Shown here: positions 5,943 to 30,835 of the stretch, piece by piece
How the letters are laid out: each line of letters starts with the position of its first letter
Numbering within the stretch: the stretch's first letter is position 1
Assembly: GCA_003246895.1 (NCBI GenBank)
Contig: QKCL01000067.1
Span: forward strand, 17,995-81,994
Reading direction: 5' to 3'
DNA: 64,000 nucleotides
DNA from: Spirochaetota bacterium
Lineage (GTDB): Bacteria; Spirochaetota; UBA4802; UBA5550
Notes under the pieces: generated by a model
Databases searched by the model: none
What the model was told of the DNA's origin: nothing
What the model saw: the letters and a program-made list of their open reading frames with translations, nothing else
Position numbers and translations under genes: made by a program

Positions 5943-6944
5943 TTATTCCACGTTGAGCATGCGGTAAATCTTTCTTCCTTCGTATTCGCCGTATTCAGGA
6001 AATTTGTCCGTGAATTCTTCGGGCCTGTACTTCAAAACATTCTCCGTTAAGTTTATTGATCCGGATTTTGCATAGTTGCTGCTGAGATGGTATATTGAAT
6101 TTATTGAATCTGATATGATTTTTCCGGTCTGCCCTCTGTCGTGATATGTTGTGCTTCCTATATGAAATGAAATTTTATATGATAAAAGTATGTCGTAATC
6201 GAATTCCTCGAAACTTGTGATTTTTCTGTTAAGGAGGAGTTCAAAGGCCGTGAATATGGCAGGGCACTTTTTCCCGTCGAAGGGGAACAGAAACAGTGCC
6301 GTCATGTCGTTCCACATCCATATCCTGCCGCCAACCGGGGAGAATGTTTTCTCCAGGAAATCATGAAGCTCCCTTGAAAATATCTCCACACTTTTTCCAA
6401 GAAACCGCTTCTTTATGTCTGACTTGTTGTCAAGTTCAATCATCATGAATGTAAAGATGTAGTCATTTCCGCTTTTTACTGAAGTCCAGTCCGAGCCGGA
6501 GAGTTCATATCCCTGCATTTCTTCAAGGGCCTTTTGGTCAGTGGTTTCTGTTTCTGACTGTGACTCAATAAAAAACTGTGAGCCGTAATCAAAGACATTT
6601 TTTATTCTCTGGGGAGTCATGCAGTCCTTTATGATAGACTTGCCGGCGAAATCACTTGCTCCTTCATGAAAAAAATATGCCGGATCAACGTGGTTTTCAC
6701 GTGACATTATTATCCCGAAAATTCTTTCAGATGATGAGAGAATCCTGATGTTCTTTTTTATTGCAGCATCTGTCATGCCGGTAAAATCAGCATAGACCAG
6801 GTCCTCCCTTTTTATGCATGATATGCCCTTTTTAAGGTTATTTACAGGGGCTATTTCCAGTGTAAATGATTTTGATTTTTCAATTTTACTGAACCATTCC
6901 TGTGCATTTTTATTGTCGCTGAATACAATTATCCTCATTGCCAT
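5943..6944 (-). CDS. Receiver-like N-terminus plus degenerate class III nucleotidyl-cyclase-like domain
   Basis: VYAD and GASDFAGK (REC-like); FMMIELD, GGRIWMWND, ISFHIG, SDSIN (cyclase-like). Confidence 0.55.
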   Translation of the reverse strand: MAMRIIVFSDNKNAQEWFSKIEKSKSFTLEIAPVNNLKKGISCIKREDLVYADFTGMTDAAIKKNIRILSSSERIFGIIMSRENHVDPAYFFHEGASDFAGKSIIKDCMTPQRIKNVFDYGSQFFIESQSETETTDQKALEEMQGYELSGSDWTSVKSGNDYIFTFMMIELDNKSDIKKRFLGKSVEIFSRELHDFLEKTFSPVGGRIWMWNDMTALFLFPFDGKKCPAIFTAFELLLNRKITSFEEFDYDILLSYKISFHIGSTTYHDRGQTGKIISDSINSIYHLSSNYAKSGSINLTENVLKYRPEEFTDKFPEYGEYEGRKIYRMLNVE

Positions 6945-21749: not shown

Positions 21750-21961
21750 AAATTAATGTACATATAATATAACAAAAAAAATGGGGGAGTAAAAGAAAAA
21801 AACAGGTCCGGGGAAGGTTTGATACGGTGAATTCTCTTTAATAGTGTGTTGGCGGGCAGTGAACTCTCCTGCATGAGCCCTATGGAAAAGTGGTTGATAA
21901 ACCTGCCTTTTCGGTCAAAGATGACCAGATTCGGTACAGTATAAAAACAGGTGAGGTTGTG

Positions 21962-23263
21962 ATGTTTAACAGTGAAATTGAGACAATGTCTGAAAGTAAG
22001 ATGAAGGAGCTTCAGCTTGAAAGACTTAAATGGTCCATCAGGCATGCCTATGATAACGTTCCTCATTACAGGAAGACTTTTGATGACGCAGGATTTAATC
22101 CTGACCAGTTTAAAACACTGGATGATATGAGAAGAGTGCCATTTCTTACAAAACAGGATATGAGGGATGCCTATCCCTACGGACTTTTCGCGGTTCCTCT
22201 CAGCAAGGTTGTTAGAGTACATGCTTCATCCGGTACCACTGGTAACGCAACCGTTGTGGGATATACAAAGAATGATGTTGAGGTTTTTTCCGAGGTTGTT
22301 GCAAGAAGTCTTGCCTGCTACGGAGTAACTGAGAATGATATTGTCCAGAACGCATACGGATACGGTCTTTTTACAGGGGGCCTGGGGGCCCATTACGGAG
22401 CTGAAAAAATAGGGGCAATAACAGTGCCCATTTCCGGCGGAAATACTCCAAGACAGATTATGATCATGAAAGATTTCGGGTCAACAGTTCTCTGTTCGAC
22501 TCCTTCATATGCCCTTAATATAGCTGATTATATAGAGTCTAACATGCCGGATTTTGATATGAGTTCTCTTAAACTGAAAATCGCTGTCATGGGTGCCGAG
22601 CCCTGGACTGAGGAGATGAGGCAGCAGATTGAGAAACGCCTGAATGTTGATGCTTTTGATATTTACGGACTCAGCGAGGTTATAGGGCCGGGGGTATCTG
22701 CGGAATGTACAGAGAAGAGCGGCCTTCATGTTTTTGAAGATCATTTCTATGTTGAGATTATAGATCCGGACACGGGAGAGATTCTTCCTGAAGGTTCCGA
22801 GGGGGAGATAGTATATACTTCCCTGACCAAGGAGGCTTTCCCCACGATCAGATACAGATCCAAGGATATTACAAGGCTTTATCATGACAGCTGCAGGTGC
22901 GGAAGAACACTTGTTAAAATGGATAAGGTCACAGGAAGAACAGATGATATGCTTATTATCAGGGGAGTAAATGTATTCCCGTCACAGATAGAGTCTGTGC
23001 TTATGCAGGAGGAGGGCACAGAGCCGCATTATCAGATCATAGTTGACCGCAAGGGAACCATGGATGAGATAGAGGTAATGGTGGAGGTCAATGAAAAGGT
23101 CTTCTCCGATGAGATAAAGGTCCTTGATTCACTTGCAAAGAGTCTTGCCCACAGAGTCAAGAGTACTCTCGGCATTACTGCGAAAATCAAGCTTGTTGAG
23201 CCCAAGTCTATACCTAGAAGTGAAGGCAAGGCTGTGCGTGTTATAGATAACAGAAAAAAATAG
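21962..23263 (+). CDS. paaK: Phenylacetate-CoA ligase family
   Basis: [43 protein letters not shown]. Confidence 0.9.
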
Positions 23264-23273
23264 GGGGGATAAT

Positions 23274-23711
23274 ATGAACGTTACTCAGATTTCAGCATTT
23301 GTTGAAAATAAACCGGGCCATATTGCCGGTGTCCTGAAGGTGCTGGCAGACAACAATATAAATATCATTACACTTACTGTTGCCGATACTGCAGACTTCG
23401 GGGTGCTCAGGATGATTCTTGATAAACCTGAGCTTGCAAAGGCAAAACTCAGTGAAAACAGTATTACATGCAGTGTTACAGATGTTCTTGCCATCGAAAT
23501 AGATGATACTCCGGGAGCTCTTTTAAAAGCACTTGAGGCATTTTCAAATCTTGAGCTTAACATTGAGTACATGTATGCCTTCACACAGAAGATTCATGAT
23601 AATGCCGTAATGATTTTCAGGTTTGAGGATATTGAGAAAGCAAAAAAAGCCCTTGTTGAAAAGGGCTGTAGAATAATAAGAAATATTGACATAATTGGAG
23701 AAGATAAATGA
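23274..23711 (+). CDS. Tandem ACT-domain protein
   Basis: QISAFVENKPG, DFGVLRMI, DTPGAL, NIEYMYAF. Confidence 0.88.
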   Translation: MNVTQISAFVENKPGHIAGVLKVLADNNINIITLTVADTADFGVLRMILDKPELAKAKLSENSITCSVTDVLAIEIDDTPGALLKALEAFSNLELNIEYMYAFTQKIHDNAVMIFRFEDIEKAKKALVEKGCRIIRNIDIIGEDK

Positions 23712-25264
23712 CCAGTAAAGTTATGTTGGGAAACGAAGCTATCGCACGTGGAGCATGGGAAGCGGGATGCCACGTTGCTGCGGGATATCCCGGAACTCCC
23801 AGTACTGAGATACTGGAAACCATTGCTGCTGATTACAGAGACATAAAGGCTCAGTGGTCCCCCAATGAGAAGGTGGCTCTCGAGGTTGCAGCAGGAGCAT
23901 CAATTGCCGGAGCAAGGTCTCTTTCCACAATGAAACATGTGGGGCTCAATGTTGCGGCGGACCCTCTTTTTACTTTTTCATACACAGGGGTAAACGGCGG
24001 ATTTGTAATAATAAATGCCGATGATCCGGGAGCATGGAGTTCCCAGAATGAGCAGGATAACCGTCACTATGCAAGGGCGGCAAAACTTCCCATGCTTGAG
24101 CCTTCATCTCCTGCTGAGGCCAGGGAATTCACAAAGAAGGCATTTGAAATTTCGGAGAAATTTGACAGGACCGTTATTGTAAGGATAACTACAAGGATCG
24201 CCCATTCTCAGGGGATTGTGGAGTTAGGCGACAGGGAAAATGTACCTGTTAAGGATTTCGTGAGAGATCCTAAAAAATATGTCATGATTCCGGCTCACGC
24301 AAGGCCGAAGCACAAAAAGATTGAAGAACAGCAGGCTGAGATAATGGATTATTCCTGTACTTCAGGTCTGAACAGAATCGAGTGGGGCGGTAAGAAACGC
24401 GGTATAATAACAAACGGTATCGCCTATCAGTATGTTAAAGAGGTTTGTCCTGATGATTCTGTTTTAAAGATCGGAATGGTCTGGCCTCTGCCCGAGAAAC
24501 TCATCAATGAGTTTGCGGCAGGTGTTGAGGAGCTTTACGTGGTTGAGGAACTTGACCCGTTTATTGAAGATTATGTCAAGGCAATGGGATACGAGGTCAA
24601 GGGAAAGGATATTATTCCTTTATGTGGAGAACTCACTCCTGAAATTGTTGATGAGGCACTGAATGGAAACAAAACTGTGAAGGCTGTTCCTGAGTATGCA
24701 GGAGATCTTCCAGGCCGGCCTCCTGGACTCTGCAAGGGATGCCCCCATGCCTTTGTTTTCGATGTAATAAAGAAACTGGATCTTAATGTTAACGGCGATA
24801 TCGGATGTTATACTCTTGGAGTCCTTCCTCCCTATTCGGCAATGCACACACAGGGATGTATGGGAGCCAGTATCGGTATGCATCTTGGAATGGAGAAGGC
24901 TCATGGGCCTGAGATGGCAGCTAAATCTGTAGCTGTTATCGGCGACTCAACATTTATCCATTCGGGTATCACTCCTCTGATCGACCTTGTCTACAATAAA
25001 GGAACCGGTACAGTTATTATTATGGATAACAGAACCACTGCCATGACCGGTCATCAGGAGAACCCCGCCACCGGCAAGACCCTTATGGGAGAGGAAACAT
25101 TCGAACTCGACCTTGAGGCAATCTGTAAAGCTGTGGGTGTAAAGAGAGTGAGGGTAATTGATCCCAAGGATAAGGATGAGCTTGAGAAAGTCCTTTCAGA
25201 GGAGATTTCCACAAGAGAACCTTCTGTTATAATAACAAAGAGAAAGTGTATACTTAAGAGGTGA
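23708..25264 (+). CDS. iorA: Indolepyruvate ferredoxin oxidoreductase alpha subunit
   Basis: GYPGTPSTE, NEKVA, MKHVGLNVA, LCKGCPH, GDIGCY, GDSTF. Confidence 0.92.
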   Translation: MTSKVMLGNEAIARGAWEAGCHVAAGYPGTPSTEILETIAADYRDIKAQWSPNEKVALEVAAGASIAGARSLSTMKHVGLNVAADPLFTFSYTGVNGGFVIINADDPGAWSSQNEQDNRHYARAAKLPMLEPSSPAEAREFTKKAFEISEKFDRTVIVRITTRIAHSQGIVELGDRENVPVKDFVRDPKKYVMIPAHARPKHKKIEEQQAEIMDYSCTSGLNRIEWGGKKRGIITNGIAYQYVKEVCPDDSVLKIGMVWPLPEKLINEFAAGVEELYVVEELDPFIEDYVKAMGYEVKGKDIIPLCGELTPEIVDEALNGNKTVKAVPEYAGDLPGRPPGLCKGCPHAFVFDVIKKLDLNVNGDIGCYTLGVLPPYSAMHTQGCMGASIGMHLGMEKAHGPEMAAKSVAVIGDSTFIHSGITPLIDLVYNKGTGTVIIMDNRTTAMTGHQENPATGKTLMGEETFELDLEAICKAVGVKRVRVIDPKDKDELEKVLSEEISTREPSVIITKRKCILKR

Positions 25265-25272
25265 GTAGATCG

Positions 25273-25842
25273 ATGAAGAGTGTAATATTTAACGGTGTTG
25301 GAGGCCAGGGAGTTATACTGGCAAGCAAGGTCCTCATGGAAGTTGCAATGAAAAACGGATATGATGTCAAGGAATCCGAAGTCCACGGTATGGCTCAGCG
25401 CGGCGGAAGTGTGGAGTGTAATGTCCGTTTCGGAGAGAAGGTCTATTCTCCTCTTATTCAGAAAGGGAAAGCGGATTTTATTGTGAGCTTTGAACTTTTA
25501 GAGTCAATGAGAAAGACAGATTATCTGAACGATGATACAGTTCTCCTTGTCAACAGGGAACAGATAAATCCTGCACCTGTTGAGATAGGTGTTATGGAGT
25601 ATCCCTCTGATATTGAAGAGTGGCTGGAGAAGAACGTAAAAAATGTCAAGATACTTGATACAAAGGATGCTCTCATCGGAGCCGGTACAAAGAAGGCGCT
25701 GAATATAGTAATGCTGGGAAGTCTTTCAAAGTATCTGGAATTCGAACTTTCAGACTGGGAAGATGCCATTAAAGGTCTTGTAAAGGAACAGTTTGTTGAG
25801 CAGAACATTAAAGCTTTTAATCTTGGAAGAGCTCTTGTGTAG
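25273..25842 (+). CDS. iorB: Indolepyruvate ferredoxin oxidoreductase beta subunit
   Basis: GVGGQG, EVHGMAQRGGSV, NIVMLG, NIKAFNLG. Confidence 0.92.
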   Translation: MKSVIFNGVGGQGVILASKVLMEVAMKNGYDVKESEVHGMAQRGGSVECNVRFGEKVYSPLIQKGKADFIVSFELLESMRKTDYLNDDTVLLVNREQINPAPVEIGVMEYPSDIEEWLEKNVKNVKILDTKDALIGAGTKKALNIVMLGSLSKYLEFELSDWEDAIKGLVKEQFVEQNIKAFNLGRALV

Positions 25843-26045: not shown

Positions 26046-26402
26046 GTCAAATCGACACATCATTGCATCAAATCGACGCGCCATTTGGTTAAATTGATGC
26101 TCCGCTGGGTCAAATCGACATTCCCGAGAGTTAAAACGACACTCAAGAGTATTAAATCGATACTCCAGACCATAAAACTTACTCTCCAGAGTATAAAATC
26201 GATGCTCACGACCTTAAAGTTTATGCTCCGGACCATGAATCTTATACTCTCGACCATGAATCTTATGCTCTCGACCATGAAATTTATTCAACGGACCATG
26301 AAGTTTATGCTCCAGACCATGAAATTTATACAACGGACCATGAATCTGATGCTCCCGACCATGAAATTTATACAAAGGACCATAAAGTTTATGCTTACGC
26401 TC
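26046..26402. repeat. Tandem array of 17 degenerate 21-bp units
   Basis: Units such as ATGAATCTTATGCTCTCGACC and ATGAAATTTATTCAACGGACC in exact 21-bp register from 26046 to 26402. Confidence 0.9.
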
Positions 26403-26419
26403 AATGTTTCAACATAGTT

Positions 26420-27919
26420 TTGGGTGTGTCAGGGGTGTGTCAGAGAAACTGTGTAAATATTCAGTGGGGGACGATAATAATATTACTGGAGGTTTTCCGG
26501 AAGACCTGGGCCGGAGCAGCACTAGCTGGAGCAGCCGGGTCAGTAGCAGGTGGCATAAAGATGGGCGGAATGTATCTGTCAATGAAGAACCGTATAGGAA
26601 GATTCGCAACCGGCATACAGAATGATTTTAATGATTTTACAGATGATATGGGCAGGGCAGGAAGTGCAGTGGCATCAGCAGCCAGCACTGCATGGAAAGG
26701 AATAACAAGTGCAGAAAGTGCAGCGTGGACAGGTGTAAAGAATTTCGGACAGAGTGTTAAGAACAAGGTTGCATACGGAGTTTATGGTACAGATACAGAT
26801 TCTGATGTATTAAATGCAAAATTCCAGGAAATGTGGAACTCAGATGCAGTAAGTAAGGTAGTAACGGGTTATGGTGCATCTTCAATGAGTTATGGTAAAT
26901 ATCTTGAAACTAATCTGAAAATTACTACAGACAGTAATGGTAATACGGTACTTGCAACTAAAAAAGCAACAGCCTTTGGAGATAGAGAAAATGAAGATGA
27001 TACTTCGGGCATGAGTGAACAACAATTTGAAGAAGCTGATTCAAAACAATCATTTTTAGGAAAGTTCTTTCACAATAAAACAATAATGTGGAAAAATGCA
27101 TGGAGTACAACAGTCCGAGCATCAGAAGAGGGGCTTTCTGGATATGAAAATATAACTGAACGAGAGTTATTCGGTAATGATAGTAGTGGAGAGGCAGCTT
27201 TTGATAAAGTTGTGGGTAGTCTTAAAGACAGTCTTTTGCAAGAAGCCAAGGGTGACTACATGGATAAGGTTCTCAATTCATGGGAAAGTACAGGTGGTTT
27301 TTTAAATGGTGACAATTTGTTGCAAGCAGCAGCATTAGGAGGAGCATATCTTTACTTTAGTGAAGGTGCAGGTTATACTCATACATTCAAAAATGGAATA
27401 ATTGCAGGTGGAGAATTTGGCTGGGACAACAGTGACCCTAAAAATAACTGTTCAGGAAAGGTAATTATTGGCGGTGAAAATAGCGATGTAACAGCTAAGG
27501 CTACATTTGAAGCTGGAAAGGAAATGGATAATGATTCTGGAAAAATTAATAACCGATTTGATAGTAATGTTGAAATTCAGACAAAAGATTTTGGTGGTAA
27601 ATATGAATTTGAAATTGATACAAGTAAAAATAGCACTACAATAACCAACTCATTGTCTGGCAAGTACCAGATTAATAAAAATATCAGTATCTATGGAGGG
27701 GGAAGTTATTCCAGCCAGTCTGATGGTTCAAATTCATGGAATATAAATTCGGGATGGCAATATAGCGGTCAATACAGAGTCAATGCTGACATTGGTTTTG
27801 GTAAAAATTACAATAATAGCAATGAATATTCTTTGAAGTGGAGTTTTAGTACAAAAATAAATATTTTCGGAGATAAAAAGACAGTAGATAAATTAAAAAA
27901 GATAGGAAAAAATAATTAA
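26420..27919 (+). CDS. Headless polymorphic-toxin-like protein (Gly/Ala-rich helices, then a beta-rich C-terminal domain)
   Basis: First ~25 codons read through the IS-like end; then AGAALAGAAGSVAGG and AGSAVASAASTAW; AT-rich C-terminus of alternating beta strands; followed by a MORN gene. Confidence 0.55.
   Translation: MGVSGVCQRNCVNIQWGTIIILLEVFRKTWAGAALAGAAGSVAGGIKMGGMYLSMKNRIGRFATGIQNDFNDFTDDMGRAGSAVASAASTAWKGITSAESAAWTGVKNFGQSVKNKVAYGVYGTDTDSDVLNAKFQEMWNSDAVSKVVTGYGASSMSYGKYLETNLKITTDSNGNTVLATKKATAFGDRENEDDTSGMSEQQFEEADSKQSFLGKFFHNKTIMWKNAWSTTVRASEEGLSGYENITERELFGNDSSGEAAFDKVVGSLKDSLLQEAKGDYMDKVLNSWESTGGFLNGDNLLQAAALGGAYLYFSEGAGYTHTFKNGIIAGGEFGWDNSDPKNNCSGKVIIGGENSDVTAKATFEAGKEMDNDSGKINNRFDSNVEIQTKDFGGKYEFEIDTSKNSTTITNSLSGKYQINKNISIYGGGSYSSQSDGSNSWNINSGWQYSGQYRVNADIGFGKNYNNSNEYSLKWSFSTKINIFGDKKTVDKLKKIGKNN
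26433..26460 (+). mobile_element. Isolated IS256-family-like terminal inverted repeat, no transposase
   Basis: GGGTGTGTCAGAGAAACTGTGTAAAT fits the GGGnnTGTCAG..TGTGT pattern I recall for IS256-family ends; its first 11 bp are tandemly duplicated at 26422-26432. Confidence 0.55.
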
Positions 27920-27960
27920 TAAGGTTTAGCGTAATTTAAATATTATAAGGATTAAAGAAA

Positions 27961-28692
27961 ATGAAAATTGCAGTGAATATTCTATTTAGCGTAATGTTTT
28001 TAGTTTCAAGTATTAGCTATGCGAAAGAAAACTATGTTCAGGATATGAAATACAGAGGTGGCAAGTATACCGGAGAAGTGAAGAATGGCCTGCCGCAGGG
28101 GAGGGGGACATTTATAGATAATGATGGCAAATATGAAGGTGAATTTTATAAAGGCAATTTTCAGGGGAAGGGTAAGATTTTTTTTAAAAATGGAAGCACT
28201 TATGAAGGTGAGTTTAAGAATGATAAAAAAGATGGAAAAGGTGTATTTATATGGATAGAGAATGGTAAATTTTCAATGAAATATATTGGTCAATATAAAA
28301 ATGAATATAGGCATGGCAAAGGTATGTATATAATGGCCAATGGTGTAAAATATGAAGGTGAGTTTAAGAATGGGAAAGAACATGGGAAAGGTATCTATAT
28401 ATGGGAAAATGGGGAGAAATATGAAGGCGAGTATAAGAATGGAAAGAGACATGGTAAAGGAATTTATTATTGGCCATCAGGGAAAAAATATGTTGGTGAA
28501 TATTTTAATGGAGCAAGGCATGGGAATGGTACAGAAATATTGCCTGATGGGAAAAAATTTGTTGGACACTTTGAAAATGGCAGAGCTACCGGTTATGGAA
28601 CCATGTATGATAAAAATGGTAAAATACTTGCCCAGGGTTATTGGAGAAATTATAAATATATAGGGAAAGAAAAACCGAAAGATTTAGAGTAA
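27961..28692 (+). CDS. Exported MORN-repeat protein (candidate immunity protein)
   Basis: Signal peptide; about 7-8 repeats of YEGEFKNGK.HGKG.Y.W.NG. Confidence 0.88.
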   Translation: MKIAVNILFSVMFLVSSISYAKENYVQDMKYRGGKYTGEVKNGLPQGRGTFIDNDGKYEGEFYKGNFQGKGKIFFKNGSTYEGEFKNDKKDGKGVFIWIENGKFSMKYIGQYKNEYRHGKGMYIMANGVKYEGEFKNGKEHGKGIYIWENGEKYEGEYKNGKRHGKGIYYWPSGKKYVGEYFNGARHGNGTEILPDGKKFVGHFENGRATGYGTMYDKNGKILAQGYWRNYKYIGKEKPKDLE

Positions 28693-28737
28693 TTCTATTT
28701 TTTAGGAATTAATTGAAATAAATAAAGGAAACCCTCA

Positions 28738-29160
28738 ATGATTAAGAAAAAAGTAGATATAAAAACAGAAACAAACACAGAGGCACCAACCATACCAGAA
28801 GTGTACAGCAACGCAGTGCTAACAAACATGACACCATACGAGTTTGAAATAACCCTTGGACTTGGAAGCAGCAACTACGAGGGTGTTAAACCTGTGGTTA
28901 ATGTGAGAATGAGCCCTCAGTTTGCCAAAGGCCGACCCATCACTTCCTGTGATGTGGTCGGCATCAACCTCATCGCTTTCTCAGGATGAGATGATGCAAA
29001 GCCGTTACAGGATGTAACAATTGGTTTTGCCTGAGAACGTGAGTTCAGCAACCTGCTTCAACAGAACGTAAAGATGTTTGAAGAGAGGTTCCGGTATATG
29101 AGGAGTAGATGCTTGTTTTACGGAACAAGTTCTTTGAAAACAGTTCAGGATTACACCAAG
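28738..29160 (+). pseudogene. DUF3467-like gene interrupted by a 111-nt insertion
   Basis: PEVYSNA..TPYEFEITL..VNVRMSPQFAK (to 28929) resumes in frame at 29041 as EFSNLLQQNVKMFEERF; the insert carries two in-frame TGA codons. Confidence 0.7.
28930..29040. mobile_element. 111-nt structured insertion (MITE/REP-like, or RNA element)
   Basis: Almost fully paired; see findings. Confidence 0.6.
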
Positions 29161-29251
29161 CCGATTTAACACGAGGTTGAATCGGATGTTGCCGAGGACA
29201 AGCATGGATGCGTCCGCAGGCAGAAATAATATTTTTATGAAACAGTAAGGC

Positions 29252-29321
29252 AAGCCGACCCAGGGCGTCTGACTGGTCGGCTTTTTTGTGCAGCTTTTTG
29301 GGTCGTTGCCAAAAAGCTGCA
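29252..29321 (+). terminator. Terminator-like hairpin with U-tract, then a perfect 13-bp hairpin
   Basis: AAGCCGAC..GTCGGCTTTTTT; TGCAGCTTTTTGG-N7-CCAAAAAGCTGCA. Confidence 0.7.
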
Positions 29322-29423
29322 GAACGAATATAGAAATATTCAGAATTGATATAATTGAATGAAAATCAGAATTTGTCTTAAATAGTTCCTGATAAAAAAG
29401 ATTAAATTAAAATTTAAAAAGTT

Positions 29424-29662
29424 ACATGCAACATCGCGTGAGTGATGGAGCCGATATGCCGAAGGCATACAAGGCGAGAGCGCGACCCGCCGGGAAACAA
29501 ACCAGTTTGAGAGAAACAAGAGAATGAAGGTACTCATTCCAGGTGCGCAGACATTGTGCGCTTAAACAATTGGGAAAGGGACACGCCCAACCTTTACTCA
29601 GGTCTGCAGGTCGTCGATTCTATTTTGCCACTTCCTGTGGCAGAATCGACATCAACCTCATC
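29424..29662. ncRNA. Candidate structured non-coding element of unknown class
   Basis: GC-rich non-coding block with at least six consecutive stems, right after AT-rich DNA. Confidence 0.4.
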
Positions 29663-29666
29663 CTGA

Positions 29667-30347
29667 TATAGCTATGTAGATTTAGAGTCCCAGTGGCTAA
29701 ACAGAAACATAGAAGAGGTCTTTGAAAAGAACGGATTCTTTGAGGAACATACAGAGGTAGAGTTCGACCGGCTTGGCAGGAAGTTCGGAGAGTATTGCCA
29801 GTACTGGATGGCCGGGGAAGCCCTGAAAGCCGGAGCCTTCTACAGTAAGCCCATTTTCCCCAATGGACCGAATATGTTTCAGACAGCGGCCATAGCAGCG
29901 AGTTTATCTGGGCAGGCATGGCTTGCAGAGGCAATAAGTGTAGCAACAAGCGCAATACAGGTAGCAGACGGGACTATGTCGTGGAAGCAGGCAGCATTTC
30001 AGGTTGGAGTAAGTGTGGCAACATCTGCAATAGGTGCAGGAGCAGCCGGCTTTGAGAGCAAGGCCATGCAGAACGCATCAAGTATGATGTTTAGAAAGAT
30101 GCTTGGCAGTGACGAGAAGATGAGCTGGGCCACAGTGGCAAATACAGACCCCATAGGTTAAATGGCCAGTAAGTTTTTCAATGGATTTGTAACACCTGCG
30201 AAGATATCACCGGAAATATATTTTACACTATCGACAGGAACAAGAGATTTCTCACTTTCCTTCGACATGACAGGGGAACCATACTATGCGCCCGCCTTCA
30301 ACATTGAAGCCGACAGGCATGGATGCCTTATGCAAAATTATTCATAA
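29667..30347 (+). pseudogene. Internal fragment of a large Ala/Gly-rich toxin-like protein
   Basis: Frame open from 29667 without a start; TAA at 30159-30161; same frame continues MASKFFNGFVT. Confidence 0.5.
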
Positions 30348-30835
30348 CATCCTGTTATGCTTTTTGCAGGCAGTCATCGTGTCTGCACTGTCGCCGATTT
30401 CAGGATGAAAAAGAGGCGGCTGGCACGGCCGAATCATTTATATTATCCACCTGAAAATTTAATTACTGAATTCCTGACCTGTAATTTTCTGTAAATAGGG
30501 ATATCCTTTGGTTCTGATAAAGGTTATTGTGCCCCTTTTCAGGGCTGGGGGTTCTCCTTAACTGTGTCATTAACTTTATGAAATTCCTACGAAACAAGGT
30601 AAATATCATATATTTACATATGAAATTTGGGGGTACTAGAAGAACTGATAGACTGTGCAGCGTCTGACTCTGAGCTTAAAGATCAAAAAATGCAAAGATA
30701 AAAAATCTCAGCAAACATTAAGTGCAAAAAAAAGTTGATTTTTTGCCCAAATTGCTTTTAATATATGAATGCAAAAGTTATGTGAAATTACATGCCCGAC
30801 TGAGTCCATGTATCCATCACATCTAAGAGGTAATC

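Follow-up and report, generated by a model that had tools for sequence, protein, structure and literature searches.

A family of two-hairpin units of about 57 nucleotides, probably mobile, in uncultured Spirochaetota

The stretch under study (hereafter the window) comprises 64 kb of contig QKCL01000067.1 from a Spirochaetota bacterium, in which an initial annotation, made from the sequence alone, had pointed out two similar hairpins, each followed by the same 12-mer. These hairpins are copies of an undescribed two-hairpin family of about 57 nt in uncultured Spirochaetota, and no account of the element in spirochaetes was found in the literature. The unit is probably a miniature, non-autonomous mobile element. 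What had been a two-copy curiosity is now a defined family: it has a covariance model, its ends are resolved, it shows a preference in its targets, and two empty sites serve as proof of movement. The family offers a testable account for the long-standing orphan RNA motifs Bacillaceae-1 and Desulfotalea-1. It would also point to an enzyme in spirochaetes that handles 57-nt hairpin units. Such elements break genes, as they do with DUF3467 here, remodel terminators, and give rise to repeats where metagenome assemblies break apart or are joined wrongly.

Copies in the window

Both hairpins are present at the positions given by the annotation and read as it had described them. The longer tail, ATCAACCTCATC-CTGAGAACGY, had been missed, as had a nested inverted copy (w1b) and a variant copy (w3). 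The copies are as follows.

28931-28974, plus strand: 5' part of copy 1 (w1a); hairpin 1 (HP1) at 28931-28962 with a UUCCU loop and a bulged U, then ATCAACCTCATC
28975-29030, minus strand: nested complete unit w1b, in the opposite orientation to w1a
29031-29040, plus strand: 3' tail end of copy 1 (w1a), CTGAGAACGT
29613-29666, plus strand: copy 2 (w2); HP1 at 29613-29650, then ATCAACCTCATCCTGA
30332-30390, plus strand: variant copy w3; HP1 GCAAAA-TTATTC-ATAAC-ATCCT-GTTAT-GC-TTTTTGC, with a different tail, AGGCAGTCATCGTGTCTGCACTG

The 5' part of w1a reads GCCGACC-CATCAC-TTCCT-GTGATG-T-GGTCGGC-ATCAACCTCATC, and the CTGAGAACGT at 29031-29040 is the conserved tail continuation of three copies from metagenome-assembled genomes (MAGs; L002-L004) and of 60 metagenome copies. 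Between the two parts stands w1b, GCAAAACC-AATT-GTTAC-ATCCT-GTAAC-GGCTTTGC-ATCAT-CTCATCCTGAGAAAGC, placed in the AUC^CUG loop of the second hairpin of w1a, exactly between ...CCTCATC and CTGAGAACGT; removal of its 56 nt restores the canonical tail ATCAACCTCATC|CTGAGAACGT. Read from this junction, w1b evidently inserted after w1a, inverted, into the second loop of w1a. Copy w2 reads GTCGATTC-TATTTT-GCCAC-TTCCT-GTGGC-A-GAATCGAC-ATCAACCTCATC, and its tail departs from the consensus past CCTGA, i.e. after 29666. The tail of w3, AGGCAGTCATCGTGYCTGCACTG, recurs in copies of two other loci (L034 and L057), and w3 thus marks a second subfamily.

In the 64 kb there are exactly two occurrences of the 12-mer ATCAACCTCATC and two of the apex CACTTCCTGTG, and folding of the surrounding sequence gave z-scores of -4.9 (copy 1) and -3.1 (copy 2) against shuffles. 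A covariance model, R1, was built from 41 copies of other organisms and contains no window sequence. Its scan of the 64 kb gave four matches and nothing else:

29035-28973, minus strand: w1b, 53 bits, E 2e-11, the best in the window
29608-29674, plus strand: w2, 49.9 bits, E 1e-10
28926-28997, plus strand: w1a, 41 bits, E 2e-8
30327-30382, plus strand: w3, 18.2 bits, E 0.009

All four copies are clustered inside 1.5 kb, in a decayed polymorphic-toxin-like locus.

Distribution and anatomy of the unit

An exact-pattern scan over one genome per species found the hairpin with its 12-mer in two uncultured Leptospirales MAGs and one Spirochaetota MAG, and these three copies revealed the longer conserved tail ATCAACCTCATC-YTGAGAACGY. 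A match in Acidobacteriota (L005) was rejected as chance, since it lies in a coding region and has no hairpin. A metagenome scan with a pattern of loop plus tail added 60 copies in 54 loci, mostly from anaerobic digesters, activated sludge and sediments. The annotation had allowed that no further copies might exist; there are two more in the window and 63 elsewhere. A phosphoenolpyruvate carboxykinase (PEPCK) gene beside one copy of the commonest subtype is 80-86% identical to 'Spirochaetes bacterium' proteins, so that all subtypes found so far are spirochaetal. Viral contigs gave 0 matches with the strict pattern and 19 chance coding matches with a loose one, and blastn found no match in plasmids or phages; a phage or plasmid origin was rejected on these searches, which were empty save for the chance matches.

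From the alignments, the core of the unit measures about 56-58 nt. The outer stem of HP1 is 8 bp long and the inner stem 5 bp; between them, on the 5' side, lies an internal loop of 4-5 nt (AUUC or UUUC), and the inner stem is capped by an N-UCCU loop, with a 1-nt bulge, U, on the 3' side. A linker, (C)AUCAA, leads to a second mini-hairpin, CCUC-AUCCU-GAG, and the unit terminates in AACGY. A tandem pair of units, spaced 159 nt apart, occurs in one metagenome locus (L037, 1682-1905).

The proposal that selection keeps the pairing was borne out in a far larger sample than the two copies on which it had been made. Across the 41 distinct copies, HP1 is paired in 97.4% of cells, eight pairs have changed on both sides, and at least nine different outer stems occur; none of 500 shuffles attained the observed covariation (0/500), and in controls with slid partners pairing drops to 25-42%. 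In the outer flanks of C runs and G runs the alignment columns hardly vary, so covariation there is unreadable. G.U and A.C mismatches in the stems are equally frequent (9 vs 9); the pairing thus favours no transcribed strand, which suggests a signal at the level of DNA.

Insertion into the DUF3467 gene

One case of insertion lies in the window itself, in the gene in which copy 1 stands.

28738-28929, plus strand: 5' part of the DUF3467 gene (M...VRMSPQFAK), from the list of open reading frames (ORFs); upstream of the insertion
28930-29040, plus strand: composite insertion of 111 nt, copy 1 plus nested w1b; empty site in L079
29041-29097, plus strand: 3' part of DUF3467 (EFSNLLQQNVKMFEERF); beyond it, in comparison with L079, a frameshift of about 10 nt

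In the ORF that starts at 28738 the match to DUF3467 ends at 28929 and picks up again at 29041. When the two parts are joined, a single PF11950 match of 33.2 bits runs across the junction, compared with 12 bits for the interrupted ORF. An intact relative, protein P0001 of locus L079, is 94% identical to the DUF3467 of the window, and its gene has the empty site GCAAAG|GAGTTC, reading ...CAGTTTGCAAAG|GAGTTCAGC... with nothing between. The 111-nt insertion is in frame and has two stop codons inside; its ends are ambiguous by one G, and one G at most is duplicated. The observation that copy 1 begins at the DUF3467 breakpoint was therefore correct, and w1a has, to judge from the comparison with L079, inserted into the gene and inactivated it. 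An independent Logan assembly contig (L001) has the identical left junction, and at the same point of L080, which is either a paralogous locus or a related one, a decayed copy precedes a deletion. A further locus (L081, on the same contig as L043) has a copy beside a truncated DUF3467. In 70 kb around four other DUF3467 genes there is no copy, so that the tie to DUF3467 would reflect a hypervariable locus and not a function.

DUF3467 in the window carries a second lesion. Around 29085-29125, compared with positions 2715-2760 of L079, about 10 nt (GGAGAGATTC in L079) are gone after FEERF; the loss shifts the frame, and the gene is thus a pseudogene twice over. Downstream, a non-coding stretch, GTTCTTTGAAAAYAGTTCAG, is conserved between the window (29130-29150) and L079 (2832-2852).

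Other insertions and target preference

The second comparison of filled and empty sites concerns a unit located 12 nt beyond pckG in locus L059. Three assemblies of a relative (L089, L090 and L091) align across this junction over 246 nt at 90% identity, and are without exactly the core CCAACGC...GAGAACGC, from the foot of HP1 to GAGAACGC. The empty site is an intact terminator, CCCCCCC-AGA-GGGGGG-CUUUU, and the unit is placed inside its G run, as read on the strand of the element. When the joined flanks of all copies were compared with the collected loci, this pair (L059 vs L089, L090 and L091) was the only further empty site to emerge. At the three resolved junctions, 1 nt (G) at most is duplicated.

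Among 44 distinct copies, base -1 is G in all 44 and base -2 is A or G in 43, while base +1 is G in all 44 and base +2 is G in 39; the resulting target pattern, RRG^GG, holds across several unrelated classes of flank. The comparisons of filled and empty sites demonstrate, at the level of sequence, a unit that moves as a block, without cargo, in one orientation and between G residues of a purine run.

Often the unit has landed within a GC-rich terminator hairpin at the end of a gene. A single host GC hairpin in L045 has received two units, one per strand, each in the G run of its own strand. L048 and L063 have in common a unit with a nested two-hairpin insert of about 56 nt within its HP1, yet differ in their outer flanks. 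Together with w1b, these cases show that hairpins, including the loops of other copies, are tolerated and even targeted as sites of insertion. The C-run and G-run flanks of the commonest subtype are themselves a GC hairpin repeat, AAGTCCCCCTCCGGGGGATTTAGGGGGG, which is a favoured landing site.

This short GC hairpin repeat also exists separately from the unit: it occurs at 235-262 of L059 (minus strand) and at 5873-5902 of L089, and is empty in both.

Comparison with known mobile elements

The unit shares traits with several classes of small mobile DNA. Repetitive extragenic palindromes (REP) and their paired forms (REPIN) are likewise short, imperfectly palindromic sequences found where genes end, often where two genes converge; they are non-autonomous, produce no target duplication and form inverted pairs, and their enzyme, RAYT (a Y1 HUH protein), is encoded elsewhere in single copy. 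The unit, however, lacks the GTAG of REP, as its left flanks are RRG and it starts with GCC or GCA; it has a 22-nt conserved tail with a second hairpin, and one copy sits inside a coding gene. Density may differ as well: REP amount to tens to hundreds of extragenic copies per genome, and the sequence covered here has four units clustered in 1.5 kb, with none in the remaining 62 kb of the window or in 70 kb of other loci. A preliminary screen of the six-frame ORFs of the window and the loci found no RAYT gene, and Y1_Tnp is not one of the families that recur in 150 neighbouring ORFs.

IS200/IS605 insertion sequences (IS), and their derivatives without a transposase (PATEs), insert strand-specifically beside a short target without duplication and have recognisable hairpins. 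Oriented insertion by a short target without duplication was found for the unit, but left and right subterminal hairpins bounding one element were not, and the unit does not consist of two different ends, left and right, with cargo between them. The foot of its hairpin lies at the very end of the unit, unlike in IS608, where the hairpin is offset by roughly 19 nt. No TnpA or TnpB was found in the 64-kb window or the related loci. The likeness to IS200/IS605 or REP proposed by the annotation thus holds in so far as the unit is mobile DNA with no target duplication of more than 1 nt, while of the REP hallmarks GTAG is absent, and copy number is not high in the sequence covered.

Integron attC sites also possess covarying stems with bulged bases, at gene-cassette junctions. 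The unit differs in an HP1 of about 37 nt and in inserting without a cassette. The RYYYAAC/GTTRRRY boxes of attC are not conserved, the stems GCCGACC, GTCGATTC, GCAAAACC and GCAGGCTC being without AAC/GTT; no IntI was found, and no integrase family recurs in 150 neighbouring ORFs.

Comparison with known RNA motifs

The closest likeness in architecture is to two RNA motifs of other phyla. A search of Rfam 15 at gathering level, over the window and L002-L005, reached no family and returned only a tRNA. Below that level, Bacillaceae-1 (RF01690; gathering score 35) scored 27.8 bits at 29602-29669 of the window, 21.7 bits in L003 and 19.2 bits on the minus strand of the w1b region (28978-29040), and its full model length aligns to copy 2 and to L003. 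Bacillaceae-1 likewise has two hairpins, the first a gccaC-RUCCU-Guggc inner stem inside an outer stem with a 5' internal loop, and the second with an aUCCU loop. The HP1 loop of the present unit reads A/U/G/C-UCCU, and its second loop AUCCU, in 60 copies. The two differ in host (Bacillaceae vs Spirochaetota), in the second hairpin, which in the unit has just 3-4 bp, and in the tail, which in the unit is a fixed 22-mer; insertion polymorphism has not been reported for Bacillaceae-1, and its strand is uncertain, the reverse complement resembling CsrA sites.

Desulfotalea-1 (Weinberg et al. 2010, supplement) is not in Rfam, and its examples were compared by eye only. They follow the layout of the unit, with an outer stem, an inner stem with a G/AUCCA loop, an AUCA linker and a second hairpin, CCUC-AUCCC-UGAGGG, and are dispersed at roughly 10-20 copies per genome. 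The motif differs in its hosts (Proteobacteria and Desulfitobacterium), its UCCA or UCCC loops and its frequent location beside rRNA operons. Both motifs, whose function is not known, were described as probable trans-acting RNAs that occur in many contexts. A homodimeric protein was suggested to bind RUCCU loops (Weinberg et al. 2010), and the reverse complement of Bacillaceae-1 was later found to match the CsrA motif (Gardner and Eldai 2015). The unit combines the architecture of Bacillaceae-1 and Desulfotalea-1 with the behaviour of REP or PATE-like non-autonomous elements, and has the full set of defining features of none of them.

Mechanism and alternative explanations

Of the mechanisms that might move such a unit, the mobile single-stranded DNA (ssDNA) hairpin put forward in the annotation is the best guess by analogy. 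An enzyme encoded in trans may recognise the folded single strand, namely HP1 and the conserved tail, for which the HUH/Y1 transposition of IS200/IS605 ends and REPs on ssDNA would be the precedent; a mechanism of the HUH type specifically is a doubtful, though reasonable, candidate. The UCCU loops, complementary to AGGA/GGGG, may help to choose the purine-rich target, and the AUCCU loop of w1b is a perfect match to its own target, CAG^GAU. Pairing between loop and target is thus possible, though the events behind it are few.

Several observations weigh against a mobile element. Neither the window nor about 600 kb of loci yielded a transposase or recombinase, and preliminary phmmer searches there for HUH/Y1 proteins with IS200 TnpA and E. 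coli RAYT queries gave none. The annotation had asked whether copies lie at breakpoints or near an HUH transposase or recombinase; breakpoints were found in the two filled/empty comparisons, but no such enzyme nearby. Copy density is low, as the remaining 62 kb of the window and the 70 kb of other DUF3467 loci illustrate. The 22-nt tail is highly conserved, though the PEPCK proteins of the lineages are only 78-90% identical, and this conservation could instead be that of a cellular RNA function. Long forms occur with a flank, GGGGRUGAGGG, that is complementary to the unit's own CCUCAUCC, which a model of target flanks alone fails to explain. The clean empty sites number only two, both in metagenome or MAG assemblies.

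The foremost competing explanation takes the unit for a structured non-coding RNA that serves the cell, as proposed for Bacillaceae-1, and of which the window would hold duplicated or decayed gene copies; mobility may coexist with such a role. In a sense version, the UCCU loops and the AUCAACCUC tail would pair with Shine-Dalgarno sequences or mimic the 3' end of 16S rRNA, whose AUCACCUCC the tail appears to resemble. In an antisense version, two hairpin loops of the form C-AGGAU-G would bind a dimeric protein such as CsrA. Conserved sequence with covarying structure, the full-length sub-threshold matches to RF01690, the published suggestion of a homodimeric protein on RUCCU loops (Weinberg et al. 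2010) and the CsrA match of the reverse complement (Gardner and Eldai 2015) all accord with an RNA, as do the antisense loops CACAGGAUGUG and CUCAGGAUGAG and the many copies in positions of 3' untranslated regions, some of them followed by U runs. Yet the balance of G.U and A.C favours neither strand, no conserved promoter was seen and every orientation occurs. CsrA-sequestering RNAs of the CsrB/RsmZ type present GGA motifs in the loops of a strand-specific transcript that has a promoter and terminator of its own; of these traits, the antisense strand of the unit has the loops, two of them reading AGGAU. One copy interrupts an ORF and another interrupts a copy, orthologous sites are empty, and no copy reaches any Rfam gathering score. 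A cellular RNA is accordingly considered improbable, though by a smaller measure than any of the other alternatives. The idea of a riboswitch or 5' leader was rejected, since copies are found in each of the four orientations and the genes downstream of them do not recur.

Among explanations at the level of DNA, the units may be sites of a site-specific recombinase, attC- or dif-like, bounding exchangeable cassettes, which would be the toxin fragment and small ORF between w2 and w3 in the window and, in L057, the genes between three copies. Indeed, an orphan fragment and a 61-aa ORF lie between w2 and w3, in L057 an FGE-like gene and a PIN toxin gene are interspersed with the copies, and L026 and L027 have the same DNA upstream of a copy and different DNA downstream. 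The units nevertheless insert without cargo, the window and Leptospirales stems lack the R''/R' boxes of attC (AAC/GTT), the 150 neighbouring ORFs show enrichment for no integrase family, and the downstream differences are explicable as assembly joins at a repeat; this explanation is held to be very unlikely. Less probable still, to the point of being nearly untenable, is the reading of the annotation's idea that takes copies 1 and 2 as the left and right subterminal hairpins of one IS200/IS605 or REP/RAYT element of about 730 bp that had lost its transposase. The hairpins are indeed similar, in direct orientation and beside an identical 12-mer, and there is no long target duplication. DUF3467, however, resumes at 29041, 111 nt past the break, and not after 29662; the interval 29041-29612 contains the rest of DUF3467, a stretch conserved in L079 and a terminator, and is thus host DNA. 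Each copy forms a whole unit by itself, of about 57 nt, a single such unit inserts alone at pckG, and there is no Y1/HUH match. Chance resemblance or an assembly artefact has nothing in its favour except the shortness of the motif, and is practically discounted by E-values of 1e-8 to 1e-11 with an independent model, by the same junction in an independent assembly and by 63 homologous copies elsewhere.

Taking the mobile element as the preferred explanation, a bolder extension may be raised, on which only slender odds are placed: units of about 57 nt might be the smallest autonomous-looking insertion modules in bacteria, with the UCCU loops and the CCUC tail pairing with the purine-rich target (AGGA or G runs) and so guiding a strand-specific insertion by an enzyme yet to be found, and Bacillaceae-1 and Desulfotalea-1 might be mobile DNA of the same kind and not regulatory RNAs.

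Genomic surroundings

The copies occur in all four orientations relative to neighbouring genes, and frequently stand directly behind the stop codon of one gene of a convergent pair. No neighbouring protein family recurs, save for the same locus sampled twice and the common short-chain dehydrogenases (SDRs), and a Pfam search of the 150 neighbouring ORFs revealed no transposase, integrase, nuclease or mobile-element family common to two or more. At least three contigs of one sample, of similar coverage, have one copy each.

Two further features of the window lie close to the copies:

29254-29290, plus strand: terminator-like hairpin GCCGACCCAGGGCGTCTGACTGGTCGGC with a T run; 9+8 nt in common with the outer stem of w1a HP1
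29667-30161, plus strand: orphan fragment of a giant toxin-like protein, between w2 and w3

The hairpin at 29254-29281, 290 nt downstream of w1a, is followed by T6 and looks like a terminator. The stem base GCCGACCCA..TGGTCGGC that the annotation saw in both this hairpin and copy 1 is real, and R1 gives no match here. A second strong hairpin, a 16-bp near-perfect palindrome, is adjacent at 29286-29324.

Over 133 aa, the orphan fragment is 41% identical to an internal part (residues 2477-2608) of a protein longer than 3500 aa; in L088, this protein is followed by a 135-aa gene and then a DUF3467 gene. Copy 2 had been placed next to a TGA bounding this fragment: the frame does open there, with the UGA at 29664-66 and a start at 29667, but that stop belongs to the element's own conserved CCUGAG. 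A similar layout is found in the window (26420-30347) and in L079, L080, L087 and L088, with a large or giant protein, a small variable protein (in the window a MORN-repeat protein, 27961-28692), DUF3467, and then orphan fragments or toxin-antitoxin genes. This layout has the look of a polymorphic-toxin locus, of which DUF3467 may mark the conserved end.

In L057 (567-3227), three units, each after an inverted variant copy, alternate with a gene like FGE (sulfatase-modifying) and a PIN (VapC-like) toxin gene, an arrangement that resembles a cassette array. The contig of L080, with its decayed DUF3467 copy, encodes a tmRNA at 5977-6330 on the minus strand (RF00023, 180 bits). Elsewhere in the window, at 26100-26395, a 21-nt unit (7-aa repeats) stands about 14 times in tandem, and the array runs into a long ORF, 26156/26420-27919, that has no Pfam match. 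Further upstream, at 21890-25842, an operon of seemingly ordinary metabolism codes for a phenylacetate-CoA-ligase-like protein, an ACT-domain protein and the alpha and beta subunits of an indolepyruvate/pyruvate:ferredoxin oxidoreductase.

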